Shown piece by piece: positions 7,760 to 52,535 of a DNA stretch of 64,000 nt. How positions within the stretch are numbered: the stretch's first letter is position 1; the number at the start of each line of letters is the position of its first letter. This DNA comes from an uncultured Clostridia bacterium (GTDB taxonomy: Bacteria; Bacillota; Clostridia; TANB77; CAG-508): assembly GCA_944387485.1 (NCBI GenBank), contig CALXFC010000001.1, forward strand, positions 4,179-68,178. Reading direction: 5' to 3'. Below the pieces are notes generated by a model, which worked only from the letters and a program-made list of their open reading frames with translations, searched no databases and was not told the origin of the DNA. The position numbers and the translations under genes were made by a program.

Positions 7760-8236
7760 GTGAAATTTAGAAAGATAGAGATAATAGAATTTGATAAATT
7801 AAAAAAATTATTTCCAGGAAGCGAAAAATTGTGGGAAAATTATAAAAAAATACAAATGGAAAAACTTAAAAAAAGGCAAATAGATATATTTATTCTAGAA
7901 AATAATGGAACTATTATTGGAGAAATCACAGCTAATTATAAAAGTAATAAATTAGAAAATGAAGCTCAAAATGGTGTAAGAGCATATTTGGAAGCTTTTA
8001 GGATAGAAAAAGACTATAGAGAACAAGGTTTAGGACAAAAATTAATTAATAATTGTATAGAGTATTTAGAAAATATAGGTTACACTGAATTTACAATAGG
8101 AGTAGAAGATGAAAATGAAATAGCTAAACATATATATTCTAAACTTGGATTTATAAAATTAATAGGTAAAGGACATGGAGATGAATTTGATAATAGTGAA
8201 TATACTTTATATTTAAAAGAAAATAATAAAAGTTAA
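7760..8236 (+). CDS. GNAT family N-acetyltransferase (start uncertain: GTG 7760 or ATG 7853)
   Basis: Acetyl-CoA binding-like stretch RIEKDYREQGLGQKLINNCIEY. Confidence 0.5.
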   Translation: MKFRKIEIIEFDKLKKLFPGSEKLWENYKKIQMEKLKKRQIDIFILENNGTIIGEITANYKSNKLENEAQNGVRAYLEAFRIEKDYREQGLGQKLINNCIEYLENIGYTEFTIGVEDENEIAKHIYSKLGFIKLIGKGHGDEFDNSEYTLYLKENNKS

Positions 8237-8258
8237 AATAATGTAAAAGGAGAAAAAT

Positions 8259-8669
8259 ATGAAAAAATTAAATGTAATACTTGTTTATAATAAAGAAGAG
8301 GATAAAATACTTATGTGTAAAAGAGAAAAAGAACCTTATAAAGGAAAATTTAATTTAGTTGGTGGAAAAGTAGAAAAAGGTGAAGATGAATTACATGCAG
8401 CATATAGAGAATTGCAAGAAGAAACAGGAATAACTAATGATGATATTAAATTAACACATCTAATGAACTTTCAATATGAAATGTCAGATATGGAATTAGA
8501 ATTATATGTTGGAAAATTAAATAAAGAAAAAGGATTAGTCGAAGAAATAAATAAGCTATTTTGGCTAGATAAGAATGAAAATTTTTTTGATATGGAAAAA
8601 TTTGCAGGGGAAGGAAATATTGGACATATGGTAAAGCAAGTAGAGCTTTATAAAGATAAATTATTTTAA
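8259..8669 (+). CDS. NUDIX hydrolase
   Basis: Nudix box GGKVEKGEDELHAAYRELQEETGI. Confidence 0.75.
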   Translation: MKKLNVILVYNKEEDKILMCKREKEPYKGKFNLVGGKVEKGEDELHAAYRELQEETGITNDDIKLTHLMNFQYEMSDMELELYVGKLNKEKGLVEEINKLFWLDKNENFFDMEKFAGEGNIGHMVKQVELYKDKLF

Positions 8670-8686
8670 ATATTTTAGAGGTAAAA

Positions 8687-9403
8687 ATGAGTAAGATATA
8701 TAAAAAGCTATTATTTGATTTAGATAATACATTAATTGATGATAATGAAAATAGAAGATATGCAATGAGAAAAATATTAAATGATAGAAAAGAAGAAGTA
8801 ACAGATGAGAAATTAGAAAATTTTATAAAGTTAGATGATAAATATTGGAAAGATACAGCAGAAGGAAGAATAAAAAGACCTTATGAATTTAAAACATTAG
8901 AAGAAAAAACTACATGGGTGAGAGCTCAAAGGTTTATAATGTACTTTAATTGTACATTTAAAGAAGCGGTGGCAATTAATGAAAAATATATAGAATATTT
9001 AAAAACAAACATTATCCCTATAAATAATGCTAAAGAAGTATTAGATTATTTGAATAAAAAACAATACGAAATATATATTGTAACAAATGGACCAGAAAGA
9101 CCTGTTAAAGATAAATTAAATAGTATAAAAGCTAATAATTATATAAAAACTATATTTACAGCAGAAGAAGCGGGTTATATGAAGCCGCATAAAGAATTTT
9201 TTGATAAATTTTTTAAGAAGATAAATACTAATAAAAAAGATGATATGTTAATAATAGGTGATGAATTAGAAAAAGATGTATTAGGAGGAATTCAAAATGG
9301 AATAGATTCTTGTTGGTTTAATATGAAAAAATTGGAAAATAATACTAATATTAAACCAAGTTTCGAAATAAACGATTTATTAGATTTAAAAGAGGTTTTG
9401 TAA
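8687..9403 (+). CDS. HAD-superfamily hydrolase (YjjG/5'-nucleotidase-like)
   Basis: Motif I LLFDLDNTLID; motif IV IIGDELEKDVLGG. Confidence 0.7.
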   Translation: MSKIYKKLLFDLDNTLIDDNENRRYAMRKILNDRKEEVTDEKLENFIKLDDKYWKDTAEGRIKRPYEFKTLEEKTTWVRAQRFIMYFNCTFKEAVAINEKYIEYLKTNIIPINNAKEVLDYLNKKQYEIYIVTNGPERPVKDKLNSIKANNYIKTIFTAEEAGYMKPHKEFFDKFFKKINTNKKDDMLIIGDELEKDVLGGIQNGIDSCWFNMKKLENNTNIKPSFEINDLLDLKEVL

Positions 9404-9973
9404 ATGAAAGAAGTAATATTTGTAACACATAATAAAGGAAAAATAGCATCTGCTAATAAGTATTTAAAAGATGTTAATTTTAAAGTATTTAAATACGAAC
9501 TAGAAGAACCTAGAAGTGATGATATAAAATATATTTCAAAATATAAAGTAATGGAAGCTTATAAATTAGTAAATGAACCATGTATATCATTAGATAGTGG
9601 TTTTTGGATAGATGAACTAAATGGATTTCCAAGAGCGTTTGTAAATTATTCTTTAGAAACTATAGGCATAGAAGGAATATTAAAGCTAATGGAAGGAAAA
9701 GAAAATAGAAACTGTAAATTTACAGAATGTTTATCATATTATGATGGAAAAGAATTACATCAATTTATGGGAGAACATCAAGGAACTTTATCTGAAAAAA
9801 TACTAGGAAATGATACTGATAAGAAATGGTCTGATTTATGGTATATATATAAACCATATGGATATGAAAAAACATTAGCACAGATGACAGAAGAAGAAAG
9901 AGAAAATAGAAAGAAATACAAATCAATTGATTCAATGAAAGAATTTGCTAACTGGTATAAAGAAAATGAATAA
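9404..9973 (+). CDS. Ham1/RdgB-like non-canonical purine NTP pyrophosphatase family protein
   Basis: VIFVTHNKGK...SLDSGFWIDELNGFPRAFV resembles the Ham1 TGNxGK...DDSGLxVDALNGxPG signature. Divergent. Confidence 0.45.
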   Translation: MKEVIFVTHNKGKIASANKYLKDVNFKVFKYELEEPRSDDIKYISKYKVMEAYKLVNEPCISLDSGFWIDELNGFPRAFVNYSLETIGIEGILKLMEGKENRNCKFTECLSYYDGKELHQFMGEHQGTLSEKILGNDTDKKWSDLWYIYKPYGYEKTLAQMTEEERENRKKYKSIDSMKEFANWYKENE

Positions 9974-43374: not shown

Positions 43375-43500
43375 TTAGTTTCTGCATATAAAATTTAAAA
43401 TAATATGCAGAAAATGTTGACTATCTGCATATAAAATGATAAAATATATGCAGATAATATAAGATATATGCATATAAAATCATAAAGCGTATGCAGAAAG
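43375..43500 (+). promoter_or_regulatory. iteron-rich operator/promoter region upstream of fic (at least six copies of CTGCATAT / ATATGCAG half-sites)
   Basis: CTGCATATAAcatattagttTCTGCATATAAAATttaaaataATATGCAGAAAATGTTGACTATCTGCATATAAAATgataaaatATATGCAGAtaatataagatATATGCATATAAAATcataaagcgTATGCAGAAAG; TTGACT-N17-TAAAAT promoter embedded. Confidence 0.55.
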
Positions 43501-45616: not shown

Positions 45617-47527
45617 ATGGATAATCTAAAATTTGGAAGTTTTATTAAAGAATTAAGAAAAGAAAAAAATATGACTCAAAAAGAATTAGCTAAAAAAATA
45701 GGGCTAACAGATAAAGCTATATCTAAATGGGAAAGAGGGTTAAGTTTTCCAGATATAACTATGCTTAATTCACTTGCAGAAGTATTTGATGTAGATGTTT
45801 CAGAAATTTTAAATGGAGAAAGAGGAAAAGAAAAAATAAATAATGAAGATATAGAAAAGAAAATACAAGAAGCGGTAGAAAAAGTTACATTAAAAAAAGA
45901 AAAAAGAGAAAGAAGAATAAAAATACTTAAAAGAACAATAGGAATAATATCATGTGTATTATTTGTATTATCTTTCTTATTACAGTTAGGATATTTAATT
46001 TTCTTAAAGCCACGTTCTTATGTATATGTAAGTGATTTGTTATTTTACATAATAAATGAAATTATAATATTAACATGTTCTTTAATATTTTTTACATTGG
46101 TAAAAATAAAGAAAAATTTTATTAAGAATATTGTAATTTCTATATTACTAGTTATTTTAAGCATTATAAATATAGCATTTATGATAAATAATGGTTTTGA
46201 AAATAAATGGATAGTTGAGTTTTCAAAAGATTTTTCTAGTCAGTTAGTATTAAAGAAAAATAAGAAAACTGGAGAAATTACTTATTATAAAAATACAAAA
46301 GTCTTATTTGCAAAAGATGAAGAAATTTTTTCTAATGAAGTAGAAGGGGCAATAAAAACACAATGGCTTACAAATGATATTTGTTCTATTACATATAAAA
46401 ATAAAGATGGTAACTTAGAAGAATTTGTTGCAACATATGGAGATCGTGGAAATGGTATTTCGTATTATTATGTAACAAATACTATTGTTGGTAATTGGCA
46501 AAATTTTTCACAATATGGAGATGATGTTAAAATTACAGTAGATTCAAAAGGAATTACAATTAAAAAAGATGAAAAAGAAGAATTGTTTAAATTTGAAGAT
46601 TGTAAACAATATGGAACTATTGCAGTAGTATTATATAAAAATGATGTGCCTTGTTATGTAATAGCACTAAATGAAAACTGTGAGTTAGATGAAACAAATG
46701 ATATAATAAAAGACGGTGGAACAATTACACTTGTAGAAGTATCAATGGGAAGAACAAAAACTGATATCTTAGAGTGTACAAATTATAAAGGAGAAGATTT
46801 AAGTAATTATAATGCTGTAAATGTCAAAGCTAATGATTATAAAATACAAAATGGAATTTTATATATTAGCTATGATGGAAAAAATGTAATAGAAGTTCCA
46901 GGAGATTTTTCAGATGTAGATGAATTTGAAGATGGAACATACCAAGTAGAAGAAGAAAAAACATTTTTTACATACAAGGATAATAATGAAGAATATTTAA
47001 TATATTCAGATGATAAAGGAGTAAATTGGAATACAATAAAATTAGGAAATACTTCTGTTCAAGTTATGCAATTTTTAAATACTAATATAGGATATATGTT
47101 GGAATTTAAAGATGTAGCTATGGGAATAGCTTTTGGTGATATTAGTAAAACAACAGACGGAGGAAAGACGTGGCAAGTGGTATTTAATGGAATTGGAGAT
47201 AGTGAAGAAAAAGTATTTAGTAGAGGAAGTAAAATAAGATTTTTTGATGAAAACTTAGGATTTTTAACTATGCCAAATGCAGGTGGAGAAACTTCAGAAT
47301 TGTATATTACAAAAGATGGAGGAATAACTTTTACAAGAATGAATGTACAACAAACAGAAGAAGAAAGAGATATTTATGACTATTATGAATTACCAGAAAA
47401 AGAAGATGATGGAACATTAACTTTAGAAGTTGGACAAGGTAGTAATGGTGATTATAATGGTGGAAAAAGTAAGATATATGTATCAAATGATAATGCAAAT
47501 ACTTGGGAGTTTAAAGGAGAAGAATAA
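45617..47527 (+). CDS. XRE-family HTH, TM segments, then an extracytoplasmic BNR/sialidase-like beta-propeller domain (membrane-anchored transcription-factor-like)
   Basis: HTH MTQKELAKKIGLTDKAISKWERGLSFP; 3-4 TM helices; BNR-like repeats TTDGGKTWQ, TKDGGITFT, SNDNANTWE. Confidence 0.6.
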   Translation: MDNLKFGSFIKELRKEKNMTQKELAKKIGLTDKAISKWERGLSFPDITMLNSLAEVFDVDVSEILNGERGKEKINNEDIEKKIQEAVEKVTLKKEKRERRIKILKRTIGIISCVLFVLSFLLQLGYLIFLKPRSYVYVSDLLFYIINEIIILTCSLIFFTLVKIKKNFIKNIVISILLVILSIINIAFMINNGFENKWIVEFSKDFSSQLVLKKNKKTGEITYYKNTKVLFAKDEEIFSNEVEGAIKTQWLTNDICSITYKNKDGNLEEFVATYGDRGNGISYYYVTNTIVGNWQNFSQYGDDVKITVDSKGITIKKDEKEELFKFEDCKQYGTIAVVLYKNDVPCYVIALNENCELDETNDIIKDGGTITLVEVSMGRTKTDILECTNYKGEDLSNYNAVNVKANDYKIQNGILYISYDGKNVIEVPGDFSDVDEFEDGTYQVEEEKTFFTYKDNNEEYLIYSDDKGVNWNTIKLGNTSVQVMQFLNTNIGYMLEFKDVAMGIAFGDISKTTDGGKTWQVVFNGIGDSEEKVFSRGSKIRFFDENLGFLTMPNAGGETSELYITKDGGITFTRMNVQQTEEERDIYDYYELPEKEDDGTLTLEVGQGSNGDYNGGKSKIYVSNDNANTWEFKGEE

Positions 47528-47844
47528 TGTATTATGTTTATATGTTAAGATGCAAAGATAATACTATTTACACAGGAATTACAGTAGATATAAAAAGAAG
47601 GATGGAAGAACATTTTTCTAAAAATGAGAAATGTGCTAAATATACCTACACTCATACTGCTAAAAAATTAGAAGCGGTATGGGAATGTAGAAATAAATCT
47701 TTAGCATCTAAACTAGAATATGTAATAAAAAGATTAACGAAACAAAATAAAGAAGAACTAATTAAAACAAAAAGTTTAGATAAAGTATTTTACGGTAATG
47801 AAAAAATAGATATTGAAGAATATAAATACTGTTTTTTGAAATAA
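47527..47844 (+). CDS. GIY-YIG nuclease superfamily protein (UPF0213-like)
   Basis: YYVYMLRCKDNTIYTGITVDIKRRMEEH (GIY...YIG...R...E). Confidence 0.7.
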   Translation: MYYVYMLRCKDNTIYTGITVDIKRRMEEHFSKNEKCAKYTYTHTAKKLEAVWECRNKSLASKLEYVIKRLTKQNKEELIKTKSLDKVFYGNEKIDIEEYKYCFLK

Positions 47845-47970
47845 TAGATAATTCAAATAAATATTTATCTATAGATATCAACACAATAATTTCAAACTAA
47901 TATTAAACATTCAAAATACAAAAATTATGTAAAGTACCACAAAAAATAATAGATTTTTTGTTGGAAAATG

Positions 47971-48000
47971 TTGACAAATAGTAATAAAAAGGTCTATAAT
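47971..48000 (+). promoter_or_regulatory. sigma-A-type promoter of tracrRNA (TTGACA-N18-TATAAT)
   Basis: TTGACAaatagtaataaaaaggtcTATAAT; predicted TSS about 48007. Confidence 0.6.
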
Positions 48001-48007
48001 AAAAATG

Positions 48008-48132
48008 TACAGGGAAGTACAAAATTATATCATATCAAAGTAGAATAGGTTATTACAATAAGACCTGGATTTTATTGTAAAATCTATGAGTCGTAAAGCT
48101 CTAGCTGCCGTCATAGGCAGCTATCTTCATAT
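48008..48132 (+). ncRNA. tracrRNA: tracrRNA of the type II-C system (anti-repeat 48026-48061, nexus and stem-loops to about 48130)
   Basis: ATTATATCATATCAAAGTAGAATAGGTTATTACAAT pairs antiparallel with the minus-strand-sense crRNA repeat at 34 of 36 positions (including G-U pairs) with a 2-nt internal mismatch. Followed by AAGACCTGG... and hairpin GCTGCCgtcataGGCAGC, parallel to the N. meningitidis tracrRNA (ACAAUAAGGCCGUC...AACGCUCUGCCCC). Confidence 0.65.
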
Positions 48133-48146
48133 AAGGAGGAATTAAT

Positions 48147-51100
48147 ATGGGGTACAGAATAGGGTTAGATATTGGAATAACATCAACAGGTTGGTCAGTA
48201 GTAGAAGATGATGCAGAAGGAAAACCAATAAGGATAATTGATTTAGGTTCCAGAATATTTGATGCAGCAGAGAAACCAAAAGATGGTTCACCACTTGCAA
48301 AAGATAGAAGAGATGCAAGAGGATTAAGAAGAAGGGGAAGACGTAAGAAACATAGAATAGAAAGAACTAAAAGATTATTAAATAATTATAATATAATAAG
48401 TAAAAAAGAGTTGGAAAAAATGTATGAAGATTATAAATTCCAATTTAATATATATGAATTAAGAGTTATGGCTCTAGATCAAAAAATAACTAATAAAGAT
48501 TTAGCTAGGGTTTTATTGAATTTTGTTAAAAGAAGAGGATACAAGTCAAATAGTAAATCTGAAGAATCAGAAAATAAAGAAGCGGGAAAATTACTAACAG
48601 CTACTAAAGAAAATGAAAAACTTATGGAAGAAAAAGGCTATCGTACAATAGGAGAAATGTACCTAAAAGATGATAAGTTTAAATTAAAAGACAAAAATGG
48701 TGATTTTATTTTAGATTCAAAAGGACACAAGATATTAAAGGTAAGAAATACAACAGATGATTATAAAAGTACCGCACTTAGAAAATTACTTTTAGAAGAA
48801 ATTGAAAAAATATTAAATAAACAAAAAGAATTTAATTCTGCTATAACAGATGAATTTATTGAAAAATATATTAATATATTCTTATCTCAAAGAAGTTTTG
48901 ATGAAGGACCAGGAAGTCAAAGTCCGTATGCAGGAAATCAAATAGAGAAAATGCTTGGAAATTGTACTTTTGAAAAAGAAGAAAAGAGAGCTCCAAAAGC
49001 TACATATACATTCGAGTATTTTAAATTATTACAAGATTTGAATCATATAAAAATAGAAAAAACAGAATTAGATGATAATAAATCAAGGAAAAGAACAAAA
49101 AGAGAATTAACAGAAGATGAAAAACAAAAAATAATAGAATTGGTAAAAGATAAAGCAACTGTTACATATGATGCTATAAGAAAAGTATTAAATTTAGGAA
49201 CAAATGAGAGATTTAATATGCTTACATATAAGAATACATTGATATTATCAGAAGAAACTAATAAGGAAGTTGAGAAAGATAATAAATTAAAAGAATTTGA
49301 AAGCTATCATAAAATAAAAACAGCATTAAATAGAGTTGAAAAAAATTATATAAACAAATTAACAAAAGAAGAACTAAACAGTATTGGATATGCACTAACT
49401 GTTTATAAAAACGATAATAAAAGAATAGAGTACTTGAAGGAAAATACTGAACATCTATCTGATGAAGCAATAAACGAATTGCTTAAATTATCTTTCACAA
49501 AAGTTGGAAATTTATCTATTAAAGCTATGGAAAAGATTATTCCTCATTTGGAAAAAGGACTTACTTATGATAAAGCTGTTGATGAAGAATATGAAGATTT
49601 TAGAGGAAGTGTAAATACAGAAAAGAAGAGAAAATTACGTTTGAAAGATTTAGAACAAGATATATCTAATCCAGTTGTTAGAAGAGGGCTTTCACAAGCT
49701 GTAAAAGTTTTAAATGCTATTACTTTAAAATACAATAAAAAATATGGAAAGCCAGATGTAGTTGTAATAGAGCTTGCAAGAGATATGGGCAAAAATTTTG
49801 CGGATAGAAATAAAATTAGAAAATCTCAAGAAGAAAATATGCAAAAAAATGAAAAAGTAAAAGAAAGAATAATTGAATTAGGAAAGACAAATCCAACAGG
49901 ACAAGATATTGTCAAGTATAAATTATGGCAAGAGCAAGATGGATTTTGTGTTTATTCAGGTAAAAAAATATCAGTTGAAGATTTATTTACAGAAGCAGTT
50001 GATGTTGACCATATAATCCCATATAGTATGTGCTTTGATGATACATATAAAAATAAAGTGTTGGTACTTTCAAGTGAAAATAGACAAAAGGGAAATAGAG
50101 TTCCATATCAATACGAAAAAGAAATTGGAAGAAATTTAGAAGAATATGAAGTAAGAGTAAATAATATTATAAAAAATCCAAGAAAGAGAGATAGACTTTT
50201 AAAAGAAAGTTTTACTAGAGAAGATGCTAAAGAATGGAAAGATAGAAATATTCAAGATACTCAGTATATATGTAGACTTATGTATAATTTAGTAAGAAAT
50301 CATTTAGAGTTTTCAGATAATCCTAATTTCGTAAGAAAAGTTTGGACAGTTAATGGTTCTGTTACAGCACATATAAGAAAAAGATTAGGTATAGATAAAA
50401 CAAGAGATAATGACGTACATCATGCAATAGATGCGACTGTTATTGCTATAACAAGTCAAGATATGATTAATAAAATAACAAAATATTATCAATATGTAGA
50501 TGGAAAATATATGAATAACAAAGGAGAGTATATAGATTTAGAGACAGGCGAAATTTTAGATGCTAAGAAGTATGAAGAAGATAATGGAATATATTTCCCA
50601 GAACCATGGCATAATTTTAGAAAAGAACTTGATATAAGGGTAAATTGTAAAACAAAAGAAAGAATTATTGAATGTTTAGAAGCTGAAAAAATCTATACAT
50701 ATGAAGATTATGATGATGTAAGACCAATTTTTGTATCAAGGATGCCTAGAAGAAAAGTTACAGGAATGGCACATTTAGAGACAATTAGAGGACTAAAAAC
50801 AGAGGATGGAAAGCTAAAAACTATAACAAAAACCGAATTAACTAAATTAAAGTTAAAAAATGGCGAAATTGAAGGCTATCCAGAAAAGAATAAGAAAGAT
50901 GATAAACTACTATATAATGCGTTAAAAGAACAATTGATAAAATATAATGGAGATGCAAAAGAAGCATTTAAGGAAGATTTTTATAAACCTAGAAAAGATG
51001 GAAGTAGAGGACCTTTGGTTAAAAAAGTTCAAATAGAGGCAAATGCAACGTTAGGTGTACAATTAAATCATAGTAAAGCTTTTGCAGGAAATGGTAATAG

Positions 51101-51548
51101 TGTAAGAATAGATATATTTTATGTAAAAGGAGAAGGATATTACTTTGTACCAATATATGTCAGTGATACAGTAAAAGATAAGTTGCCAAACAAAGCATGT
51201 GTCCAAGGGAAACCATATGATAAATGGAAAGAAATGAAAGATGAAGATTTTATATTTTCACTATATCCTAAAGATTTAATTTATATAGAAGGGAAAAATA
51301 AAATTAAATTAAATCCAAGTAATAAAATAGGTGATTCTATTGAAATGGATAATTTATTTGCATACTATACTAAATGTGACATATCTTCAGCACAAATAAC
51401 AATTCAAACAGATGATAATAGATATGTTCAACCAAGTTTAGGAATAAAGACATTGAAAAAGATAAGAAAGTATGAGGTTGATGTTTTAGGGCAATATCAT
51501 GAAATTAAGTTGCCAGAAAAAAGAATGCCTTTTAACATAAAAAAGTAA
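48147..51548 (+). CDS. cas9: Cas9 (type II-C size, 1133 aa)
   Basis: RuvC-I MGYRIGLDIGITSTGWSVV; Arg-rich bridge helix RRGRRKKHRIERTKRLL; HNH DVDHIIPYS...NKVLVLSSENRQKGNRVPY; RuvC-III HHAIDATVIAI. AAGGAGG RBS. Confidence 0.95.
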   Translation: MGYRIGLDIGITSTGWSVVEDDAEGKPIRIIDLGSRIFDAAEKPKDGSPLAKDRRDARGLRRRGRRKKHRIERTKRLLNNYNIISKKELEKMYEDYKFQFNIYELRVMALDQKITNKDLARVLLNFVKRRGYKSNSKSEESENKEAGKLLTATKENEKLMEEKGYRTIGEMYLKDDKFKLKDKNGDFILDSKGHKILKVRNTTDDYKSTALRKLLLEEIEKILNKQKEFNSAITDEFIEKYINIFLSQRSFDEGPGSQSPYAGNQIEKMLGNCTFEKEEKRAPKATYTFEYFKLLQDLNHIKIEKTELDDNKSRKRTKRELTEDEKQKIIELVKDKATVTYDAIRKVLNLGTNERFNMLTYKNTLILSEETNKEVEKDNKLKEFESYHKIKTALNRVEKNYINKLTKEELNSIGYALTVYKNDNKRIEYLKENTEHLSDEAINELLKLSFTKVGNLSIKAMEKIIPHLEKGLTYDKAVDEEYEDFRGSVNTEKKRKLRLKDLEQDISNPVVRRGLSQAVKVLNAITLKYNKKYGKPDVVVIELARDMGKNFADRNKIRKSQEENMQKNEKVKERIIELGKTNPTGQDIVKYKLWQEQDGFCVYSGKKISVEDLFTEAVDVDHIIPYSMCFDDTYKNKVLVLSSENRQKGNRVPYQYEKEIGRNLEEYEVRVNNIIKNPRKRDRLLKESFTREDAKEWKDRNIQDTQYICRLMYNLVRNHLEFSDNPNFVRKVWTVNGSVTAHIRKRLGIDKTRDNDVHHAIDATVIAITSQDMINKITKYYQYVDGKYMNNKGEYIDLETGEILDAKKYEEDNGIYFPEPWHNFRKELDIRVNCKTKERIIECLEAEKIYTYEDYDDVRPIFVSRMPRRKVTGMAHLETIRGLKTEDGKLKTITKTELTKLKLKNGEIEGYPEKNKKDDKLLYNALKEQLIKYNGDAKEAFKEDFYKPRKDGSRGPLVKKVQIEANATLGVQLNHSKAFAGNGNSVRIDIFYVKGEGYYFVPIYVSDTVKDKLPNKACVQGKPYDKWKEMKDEDFIFSLYPKDLIYIEGKNKIKLNPSNKIGDSIEMDNLFAYYTKCDISSAQITIQTDDNRYVQPSLGIKTLKKIRKYEVDVLGQYHEIKLPEKRMPFNIKK

Positions 51549-51635: not shown

Positions 51636-52535
51636 ATGGCTTTCAGGAATGTTTATGTGCAAAATGATGTACATATAAAAATTAAAAATGAGCAACTATT
51701 GCTTGAAACAAAAGATGATGATTTTACAATACCTTTAGAGGACATCAACAGCATTTGTATAGAATCACTAAGGACAAATATTTCTTCTTATGCATTAAAA
51801 AAGTTTGTAGAACACGATATAATTTTATATATATGTGATGAAAAACATTTACCTACTGGATTTTTGATAGGTAGCAACAACTACTCTAGACAATTAAAAA
51901 ATTTGAACATGCAATTTAATATGCCTAAACCTCTTATGAAAAGAATATGGCAAGACATTATAAGAATAAAAGTAAGGAATCAATCAGAATGTCTAAAAGA
52001 ATTAGGAATTAAAGATATAAAATTAGATAATATGATTGATAAAATAACTTCTGGGGATACAAAAAATGTAGAAGCGAAAGCAGCTTCTCAATACTTTAGA
52101 GATTTGTTTGGAAAAGATTTTAATAGAGATTTAGATTGTGTTCAAAATGGAGCATTGAATTATGGATATGCGATTATAAGAGGGATGATTGCTAGAACTT
52201 TAGTTATGTATGGATTTGAACCAGCAATAGGGATATTTCATCACAGTCAATTAAATAATTTTAACTTAGCTGATGATTTTATAGAATGTTTTAGACCAAT
52301 AGTTGATTTATATGTTTTACAAACTTTAAATTTTGATACTGAAGAATTAACACCTAGTATGAAAAGAAAAATTTACAGTGTTATTAATTGTTTGGTTTTA
52401 ATTGATGGTAAAAAATTTAATGTTCAAGGGGCAATAGATTATATGATAAAAAGTTTTTCAACAAGTATGAATGAAAATAAGAATTTAATTAAATTGCCCT
52501 ATTTGATACCAATAGAAGAGTATAGGTATGCATAA
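51636..52535 (+). CDS. cas1: CRISPR-associated endonuclease Cas1 (type II)
   Basis: 299 aa, MAFRNVYVQND...; position and size typical of type II Cas1. Confidence 0.85.
   Translation: MAFRNVYVQNDVHIKIKNEQLLLETKDDDFTIPLEDINSICIESLRTNISSYALKKFVEHDIILYICDEKHLPTGFLIGSNNYSRQLKNLNMQFNMPKPLMKRIWQDIIRIKVRNQSECLKELGIKDIKLDNMIDKITSGDTKNVEAKAASQYFRDLFGKDFNRDLDCVQNGALNYGYAIIRGMIARTLVMYGFEPAIGIFHHSQLNNFNLADDFIECFRPIVDLYVLQTLNFDTEELTPSMKRKIYSVINCLVLIDGKKFNVQGAIDYMIKSFSTSMNENKNLIKLPYLIPIEEYRYA

Follow-up and report, generated by a model that had tools for sequence, protein, structure and literature searches.

In the type II-C locus of Geobacillus stearothermophilus (GeoCas9), small-RNA sequencing placed the tracrRNA upstream of cas9 and showed the array to be transcribed against the direction of the cas genes (Harrington et al. 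2017, PMC5681539), and the II-C locus of Clostridium cellulolyticum H10 (CcCas9) likewise has its tracrRNA upstream of the cas genes and its array in the opposite direction (Fedorova et al. 2020, PMC7038990). The CcCas9 repeat ends in nine nt that resemble an extended -10 element, and tracrRNA products of 70 to 107 nt were seen on heterologous expression in E. coli (PMC7038990). An extended -10 within the repeat has been linked to repeat-embedded promoters by RNA-seq in C. cellulolyticum (PMC7038990) and by work in Neisseria (PMC12477760), where the Nme repeat reads GTTGTAGCTCCCTTTCTCATTTCGCAGTGCTACAAT (PMC12477760). The Nme1Cas9 single guide RNA carries GCAACGCTCT at the linker position (PMC6594998). 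A degenerate repeat at the transcription-upstream end of the array has been reported for N. meningitidis and C. jejuni, and tracrRNAs are thought to be derived from degenerate repeats (PMC3737331). Finally, tracr-L, a natural single guide in S. pyogenes, and scaRNA join a repeat-sense segment to a guide of 11 to 12 nt that targets the cas9 promoter (Workman et al. 2021; bioRxiv 10.64898/2026.06.01.729453), and a scaRNA co-transcribed with cas9 has been documented in L. hominis (bioRxiv 10.64898/2026.06.01.729453).

We analyzed a 64,000-nt stretch of DNA from an uncultured Clostridia bacterium (the window), for which a sequence-only reading had proposed a tracrRNA gene just ahead of cas9. We conclude with high confidence that positions 48007 to ~48130 of the plus strand are the tracrRNA gene of a type II-C CRISPR-Cas9 locus. 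A tracrRNA pairs with crRNAs and thereby makes them usable by Cas9. The tracrRNA-cas9-cas1-cas2 order with an antisense array has already been shown by RNA-seq for GeoCas9 and CcCas9, and the locus is therefore of a known kind; the gene is genuine and ordinary, a canonical II-C tracrRNA in a known arrangement.

Organization of the locus

The three cas genes of the locus (Table 1) each score above the curated cut-offs of their NCBIfam models. The predicted Cas9 matches TIGR01865 over its full length (802 bits), Cas1 falls in the NMENI/type II class (TIGR03639, 282 bits), and Cas2 matches TIGR01573 (92 bits). In an alignment of the window Cas9 with its relatives, D8, H622, and the HHAxDA motif are invariant, and the solved structures nearest to it are all Cas9 chains, of compact types. 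The locus contains cas9, cas1, and cas2 with no fourth cas gene, neither csn2 nor cas4, and therefore has a type II-C layout; the array adjoins it, 100 nt beyond cas2.

Table 1. Positions of the tracrRNA gene, its parts, and the surrounding features in the window
Feature	Position	Strand	Remarks
Tandem repeat	43381..43499		43-nt unit, 2.8 copies (TCTGCATATAAAATGATAAAATATATGCAGA...), palindromes inside
HTH_3 gene and GIY-YIG ORF	45617..47844	+	636-aa protein with HTH_3 domain at N-terminus; overlapping 105-aa ORF with GIY-YIG nuclease domain
tracrRNA promoter	47971..48000	+	-35 TTGACA 47971-47976, 18-nt spacer, -10 TATAAT 47995-48000
5'-terminal hairpin of primary transcript	48007..48020	+	GUAC-AGGGAA-GUAC; -3.5 kcal/mol, z -7.6
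Anti-repeat	48024..48059	+	ATTATATCATATCAAAGTAGAATAGGTTATTACAAT; 31/36 identity to plus-strand repeat; 34/36 paired with minus-strand repeat
Nexus	48062..48092	+	3-bp closing stem G62-A63-C64 / G90-U91-C92 around the inserted hairpin
Inserted nexus hairpin	48067..48085	+	19 nt; GGAUUUUA-UUG-UAAAAUCU
Single-stranded conserved linker	48093..48101	+	GUAAAGCUC; CG-AAGCTCT columns invariant or nearly so family-wide
Terminal (terminator) hairpin	48102..48123	+	UAGCUGCC-GUCAUA-GGCAGCUA; -14.1 kcal/mol
Decayed U-tract	48124..48132	+	UCUUCAUAU; putative leaky termination point; 4 U in first 8 nt, no run of 3 or more
cas9 ribosome-binding site	48133..48139	+	AAGGAGG, by direct reading of the sequence; ~10 nt 3' of the tracrRNA hairpin
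cas9	48147..51548	+	1133 aa
cas1	51636..52535	+	
cas2	52528..52848	+	
18-bp hairpin between cas2 and array	52898..52941		A-run on one side, T-run on the other
CRISPR array	52948..55489	-	39 identical 36-nt repeats, 38 spacers of 29-30 nt
Spacer 39	55490..55519		
40th repeat	55520..55547	-	28 nt, incomplete; promoter-bearing half kept
CsoR-type repressor and copper P-type ATPase operon	55554..58129		

The open reading frames flanking the locus encode HTH and GIY-YIG proteins upstream, ending directly 5' of the tracrRNA promoter, and a CsoR-type repressor and P-type ATPase downstream. Neither the 636-aa HTH_3 gene nor the GIY-YIG ORF is kept beside cas9 among relatives. Farther upstream, the tandem repeat lies directly 5' of an ORF starting at 43491 and may represent a group of operators.

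The minus-strand repeat is GTTGTAATTCCCTATTTTATTTTGATATGATATAAT, reading GTTGTAATTCCC...TGATATAAT from end to end. Its 3' end in crRNA sense is an extended -10, TGATATAAT, in 40 of 40 repeats, so that every repeat closes on a TGnTAnnnT motif; minus-strand promoter-like matches occur in every repeat scanned, and by sequence reading the extended -10 is kept in most repeat types of the relatives. The crRNAs would thus be made from the minus strand of the array, probably by means of the promoter inside each repeat, as in Neisseria. The incomplete 40th repeat sits at the transcription-upstream end, far from cas2, which is where arrays in N. meningitidis and C. jejuni have their degenerate repeat. 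It adjoins the promoter region of the CsoR-type repressor and copper P-type ATPase operon, and an ATACCC-N4-GGGTAT palindrome lies at ~55587-55602.

At the opposite edge, the 18-bp hairpin between cas2 and the array folds at -25.5 kcal/mol on the plus strand and -22.5 kcal/mol on the minus strand (z about -7 on both) and is likely a bidirectional terminator; a simple terminator scan missed it because the T-run lies partly within the stem. A plus-strand promoter-like site (52924-52952, TTTACA-17-TATTAT, 10/12) extends across the 3' arm of this hairpin and the first repeat, directed into the array. No other sequence feature favors sense transcription of the array, some of which is possible given such a site, and the site is probably a chance occurrence in AT-rich DNA.

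Parts of the tracrRNA gene

The proposal that the tracrRNA has a TTGACA/TATAAT promoter of its own holds up well. The site matches the consensus at 12 of 12 positions, is the best in a 1-kb scan, and lies 24 nt upstream of the anti-repeat; transcription is therefore predicted to start near G48007. Its position is kept across relatives, in that a TTGACA-like -35 and a TAnnnT -10 recur at an equal distance 5' of the anti-repeat in related loci. A promoter of this strong, sigma-A type would yield a plus-strand RNA of ~115 to 125 nt.

A repeat-like 36-mer does lie downstream, 2 nt lower than the 48026-48061 first given for it, and the anti-repeat is indeed near perfect, with 5 differences from the plus-strand repeat rather than "about 6." This identity is far above chance: the next best repeat-like 36-mer outside the array in the window reaches 25/36, and the maximum over 200 first-order Markov simulations of the window was 26/36. 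The search of the window for further repeat-like segments of at least 26/36, on either strand and outside the array, found none. The anti-repeat is thus unique in the window and lies within a type II locus.

The duplex with the minus-strand repeat comprises 31 Watson-Crick and 3 G:U pairs, one of the latter closing it. The 34 of 36 paired positions that had been counted by hand, and the II-C geometry read from them, are borne out; the 2-nt bulge is not, as crRNA nt 9-10 stand opposite UU of the tracrRNA in a symmetric 2x2 internal loop, the only unpaired part of the duplex. The 36-nt anti-repeat would pair with the repeat portion of the crRNAs, and the duplex, nexus stem, linker, and terminal hairpin together would form the scaffold bound by Cas9. 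Expression of the tracrRNA, co-processing by RNase III, and loading into Cas9 are what we infer from established type II biology.

The RNA as a whole folds accordingly on the computer. The plus-strand transcript 48007-48135 is strongly structured (z -4.4), and a 125-nt sgRNA-style fusion (24 nt of repeat, GAAA, and the tracrRNA) reaches -47.2 kcal/mol (z -8.6) in the canonical fold of duplex, internal loop, nexus, and hairpin. The terminal hairpin consists of a GCTGCC-GTCATA-GGCAGC core with two extra pairs, and it received no score in the simple terminator scan. The sequence after it, TCTTCATA, has 4 T in 8, which agrees with the weak U-tract noted earlier. The inserted nexus hairpin is present in the window and in eight relatives (L001-L008), with compensatory changes, and is absent from the clade of L009-L012 and L032 and from all distant relatives.

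Some further features of the anti-repeat region are recorded here. The 5'-terminal hairpin occurs just 5' of the anti-repeats in L001-L012 and L032, and distant relatives lack it; within the close subclades, and only there, its stem has changed in a compensatory way (GTGC/GCAC, TTGTAT/ATACAA). The loop (GGGAA at 48012-48016 in the window) looks like the repeat segment GGGAA(T/C) and is complementary to crRNA nt 8-13, the site of the internal loop in the main duplex. In the L009-L012/L032 clade the repeat has TGGAAC and the hairpin loop AUGGAAC, and the anti-repeat proper still has AGG. On this single co-varying event, the loop may be a relic of an origin from two repeats or may serve as a functional second contact. 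Separately, the extended -10 within the anti-repeat (48024-48032, minus sense TGATATAAT) would fire leftwards from ~48017 into the tracrRNA promoter. Of 15 distinct relatives, 11 carry a mutation at position 1 of the anti-repeat (pair 36:41 unpaired), a change that removes the last T of the minus-strand -10, as if an antisense promoter inside the anti-repeat were usually disabled in relatives.

Conservation across related loci

Searches with Cas9, one through genomes and one through metagenomes, yielded 36 related loci whose Cas9 proteins are 33 to 77% identical to that of the window, mostly from uncultured Clostridium, Clostridia, or Lachnospiraceae. The anti-repeat, taken as the repeat-like sequence that scores best outside the array, lies in plus-repeat orientation 69 to 168 nt upstream of cas9 in 24 of the 25 array-bearing loci (Cas9 39 to 77% identical), each preceded by a promoter-like site; the placement upstream of and co-oriented with cas9 that had been claimed for the window is thus the usual one. 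The exception, L029, has the most distant Cas9 (33%) and a repeat-like sequence at ~2904-2939 opposite to its array repeats; by this orientation, either the tracrRNA or the array appears to have flipped polarity in that lineage. Two other relatives show disturbed cas genes. In L005 (6001-9400), the closest relative, the 77% identical cas9 is split into two ORFs (to 8031; 8117-9400), either a frameshift pseudogene or an assembly error, and the tracrRNA region and array are intact. In L004 (Cas9 44 to 47% identical), a 104-aa ORF (9276-9590) comes right after cas9 and no cas1-sized ORF was found within the DNA examined; its adaptation module may be reduced or rearranged.

Covariation supports both halves of the RNA. 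When the minus-strand repeat was joined to the anti-repeat of the same locus (15 distinct rows), 93.5% of cells were paired and 20 of 34 pairs had changed on both sides; these values were not attained in any of 500 shuffles, and pairing in slid controls was 33 to 50%. The 3' tails (21 sequences) were aligned with the inserted nexus hairpin removed. Across the 12 pairs of the nexus stem and terminal hairpin, 99.6% of cells are paired and 9 pairs show compensatory changes: the nexus stem is GAC/GUC in the window and GGU/ACC in distant relatives (100% paired), and the terminal hairpin has 9 pairs, 99.5% paired, 7 of them with compensatory changes. Nexus and terminal hairpin are therefore conserved as structure, and the Nme-like nexus and hairpin suggested from the sequence have both covariation and a canonical fusion fold behind them.

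Rfam gave no match in 47700-48300 (4227 families, E<=10) and, over the whole window at gathering score, only a tRNA. The Rfam tracrRNA model presumably describes streptococcal II-A RNAs, and the null result is therefore no argument against a II-C tracrRNA. Since Rfam offered no matching family, we built a covariance model (R1) from 13 distant loci only (Cas9 39 to 48% identical), with the window's own subclade excluded. R1 matches 48025-48133 on the plus strand over model positions 1-95 of 95 (51.3 bits, E=1.8e-8), which answers the covariance check that had been proposed; all weaker matches are array repeats.

Strand polarity and the origin of the 36-mer

With a plus-strand tracrRNA and a minus-strand crRNA, 3 of the 5 differences from the repeat become G:U pairs, hence the 34/36 paired positions, and the duplex cofolds at -38.8 kcal/mol; the reverse assignment gives 31/36 and -31.2 kcal/mol, and across loci it pairs 86.9% of cells instead of 93.5%. 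Over the 15 distinct loci, G:U accounts for 39 cells in 13 columns and A·C for 5 cells in 2 columns, and the G1:U closing pair is invariant. This excess of G:U over A·C assigns the plus strand to the tracrRNA and the minus strand to the crRNA, as the sequence-only reading had it. The structured tail, found on the plus strand only, and the Nme-like orientation of the repeat agree with that polarity. In a search for protospacers, the matches of the entire array to 50,697 phage records were all AT-rich and sub-significant, three high-complexity spacer 24-mers had 0 matches in IMG/VR, 78 spacers from the window and relatives had only 13- to 18-nt chance matches in the collected DNA, and no spacers common to different loci were found among the window and relatives. 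No protospacer was thus found for an independent check of crRNA orientation from the PAM side.

We regard it as very improbable that the polarity is reversed, with crRNAs made from the plus strand in the direction of the cas genes and a minus-strand tracrRNA running from 48059 to 48024. Such a reading could draw on the 10/12 plus-strand site at the cas2-proximal edge of the array, on the degenerate repeat at the far end, a mark of the trailer in many CRISPR types, and on the intact extended -10 that the anti-repeat keeps on the minus strand (48032 to 48024). It would nonetheless turn the invariant G:U closing pair into an invariant C·A mismatch, and the RNA it calls for has no significant structure (z -1.7) and no terminator. 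The 18-bp terminator-like hairpin, moreover, would separate cas2 from an array read in the same direction, the minus-sense repeat starts with GTTGTA and ends with TGnTAnnnT as the Neisseria repeat does, and R1 has no match anywhere on the minus strand. A minus-strand tracrRNA was accordingly rejected on its worse pairing, the unstructured RNA, the rarity of A·C, and the restriction of R1 to the plus strand. We give almost no credence to the idea that the 36-mer is an unexpressed orphan, a degenerate repeat left by an old array or duplication, with the real tracrRNA elsewhere or absent. It has the orientation of the array repeats and 86% identity to them, the 14 nt just upstream also look like the end of a repeat, and degenerate repeats are the presumed source of tracrRNAs in general (PMC3737331). 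Against this, it is the sole repeat-like sequence outside the array, with a 12/12 promoter before it and a structured tail after it that co-varies over 21 sequences; its position, promoter, and tail are kept in loci with Cas9 identity as low as 39%, and a model built from distant loci finds the region. Its differences from the repeat are biased toward changes that preserve G:U pairing, which drift would not be expected to produce, and the asymmetry between G:U and A·C is not what simple homogenization of an orphan repeat would yield.

Probable read-through from the tracrRNA promoter into cas9

The terminal hairpin is followed by UCUUCAUAUA, the tail beyond it reads UCUUCAUA, and the cas9 ATG lies 23 nt past the hairpin end. 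We consider it fairly probable that the tracrRNA promoter reads through into cas9, because the U-tract is degenerate, the ribosome-binding site is only ~10 nt away, and no promoter-like site intervenes. A fraction of transcripts would then pass the terminal hairpin, and the same promoter would also drive cas9-cas1-cas2. A search of the interval between the tracrRNA and cas9 for a separate cas9 promoter gave nothing above 6/12 in the window; a good promoter occupies this interval in only 2 of 20 loci. Relatives with a decayed tail like that of the window have hairpin-to-ATG distances of 21 to 35 nt, whereas distant relatives mostly have T runs of 3 to 7 (such as UCUUUUUUU) and distances of 42 to 80 nt; L016 and L025 depart from this, having weak tails and 33 to 45 nt. 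Homology between loci starts at the -35 of the tracrRNA promoter. The upstream neighbors differ from locus to locus (HTH and GIY-YIG genes in the window, a YoeB/ParE-like toxin in L012), L032 and L004 having theirs on the opposite strand; the conserved unit therefore begins at the tracrRNA promoter, which appears to be the most economical source of cas9 transcription. We found no description of tracrRNA-to-cas9 read-through in the literature searched by full text, which is not proof of novelty.

The competing account, in which the tracrRNA is an independent unit that stops efficiently at its terminal hairpin and cas9 is transcribed from the upstream genes or an unrecognized promoter instead of the tracrRNA promoter, seems to us unlikely but deserves real weight. 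The hairpin is fairly stable, and at -14 kcal/mol with 4 U in 8 it may terminate efficiently; a tracrRNA needs discrete 3' ends, and relatives show them, as in the 70- to 107-nt products of C. cellulolyticum. The two upstream genes are, moreover, co-oriented with cas9 and followed only by a weak hairpin (-7.4 kcal/mol, z -1.45), and in the window cas9 could also be fed from further upstream. An upstream operon is not a general source of cas9 transcripts, however, since the neighbors vary in every locus and lie on the opposite strand in L032 and L004. Stacked against independence, too, are the lack of any promoter-like site above 6/12 after the anti-repeat, the short distance from hairpin to ribosome-binding site, and the decay of the U-tract in exactly the subclade with the shortest gap.

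Read-through, which we favor, admits a bolder version that we hold to be doubtful: the tracrRNA may be the 5' leader of the cas9-cas1-cas2 mRNA, with one promoter for both and the decayed terminator (48102-48132) acting as an attenuator that sets the ratio of tracrRNA to Cas9. If so, Cas9 bound to its own leader could feed back on cas9 translation or mRNA stability, which is conceivable because the Cas9-binding scaffold ends ~10 nt from the ribosome-binding site; RNase III, by cutting the crRNA:leader duplex and removing the protective 5' hairpin, could feed back likewise. Given that so few of the loci have a good independent promoter, the leader arrangement may apply to most of this Cas9 clade.

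Comparison with known type II systems

Both tracr-L and scaRNA resemble the window in being CRISPR-derived small RNAs at or in the cas9 leader and tied to cas9 expression. The window differs in its leader, which is 17 nt long and anti-repeat-like, with no repeat-sense segment upstream. A tracr-L or natural single guide was rejected for the window on finding neither a repeat-sense segment nor a guide upstream of the anti-repeat, and guide-based autorepression of cas9 is not indicated by this sequence.

The Nme-type structure 6jdq, which we take to be Nme1Cas9, has lower similarity to the window Cas9 (555 bits), and the Nme tracrRNA lies between cas9 and cas1, not upstream of cas9. By hand count, the minus-strand repeat of the window is identical to the Nme repeat at 25 of 36 positions, and both end in TGnTAnAAT. 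By eye, the Nme1Cas9 sgRNA and the window tracrRNA share the G:U closing pair and ACAAU-AAG after the duplex, the 3-bp nexus stem around an inner hairpin, and the G(C/U)AA(C/A)GCUCU linker with a terminal hairpin followed by AUC (PMC6594998); it is the inserted hairpin that gives the window nexus the stem-within-stem form of the Nme sgRNA.

These parts make up a complete guide-RNA design for an uncharacterized II-C Cas9 of 1133 aa, whose host belongs to an uncultured, Clostridium-like gut lineage. The crRNA polarity, the 24 nt of repeat, the anti-repeat, the nexus, and the terminal hairpin are all specified, and the fusion folds cleanly. A single point goes past textbook knowledge: the tracrRNA and cas9 likely share one promoter by way of a weakened terminator, which, if true, would bear on how II-C systems balance Cas9 against its RNAs.

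In overall layout the window is closest to GeoCas9 and CcCas9. CcCas9 shares the upstream tracrRNA, the opposite array, and the extended -10 in the repeat; it is 1021 aa long, compared with 1133 aa in the window. Among solved structures, the second-best relatives of the window Cas9 are chains of 1082 to 1095 aa (747 bits), presumably GeoCas9. Unlike GeoCas9, the window belongs to a mesophilic, AT-rich, gut Clostridium-like lineage and has a different repeat sequence. In the window, the tracrRNA hairpin adjoins the cas9 ribosome-binding site and has a decayed U-tract. As in GeoCas9, the tracrRNA lies upstream of cas9 and the array is predicted to be read in the direction opposite to that of the cas genes, and the window thus adds one more case of the GeoCas9/CcCas9 layout, supported by ~30 related loci.
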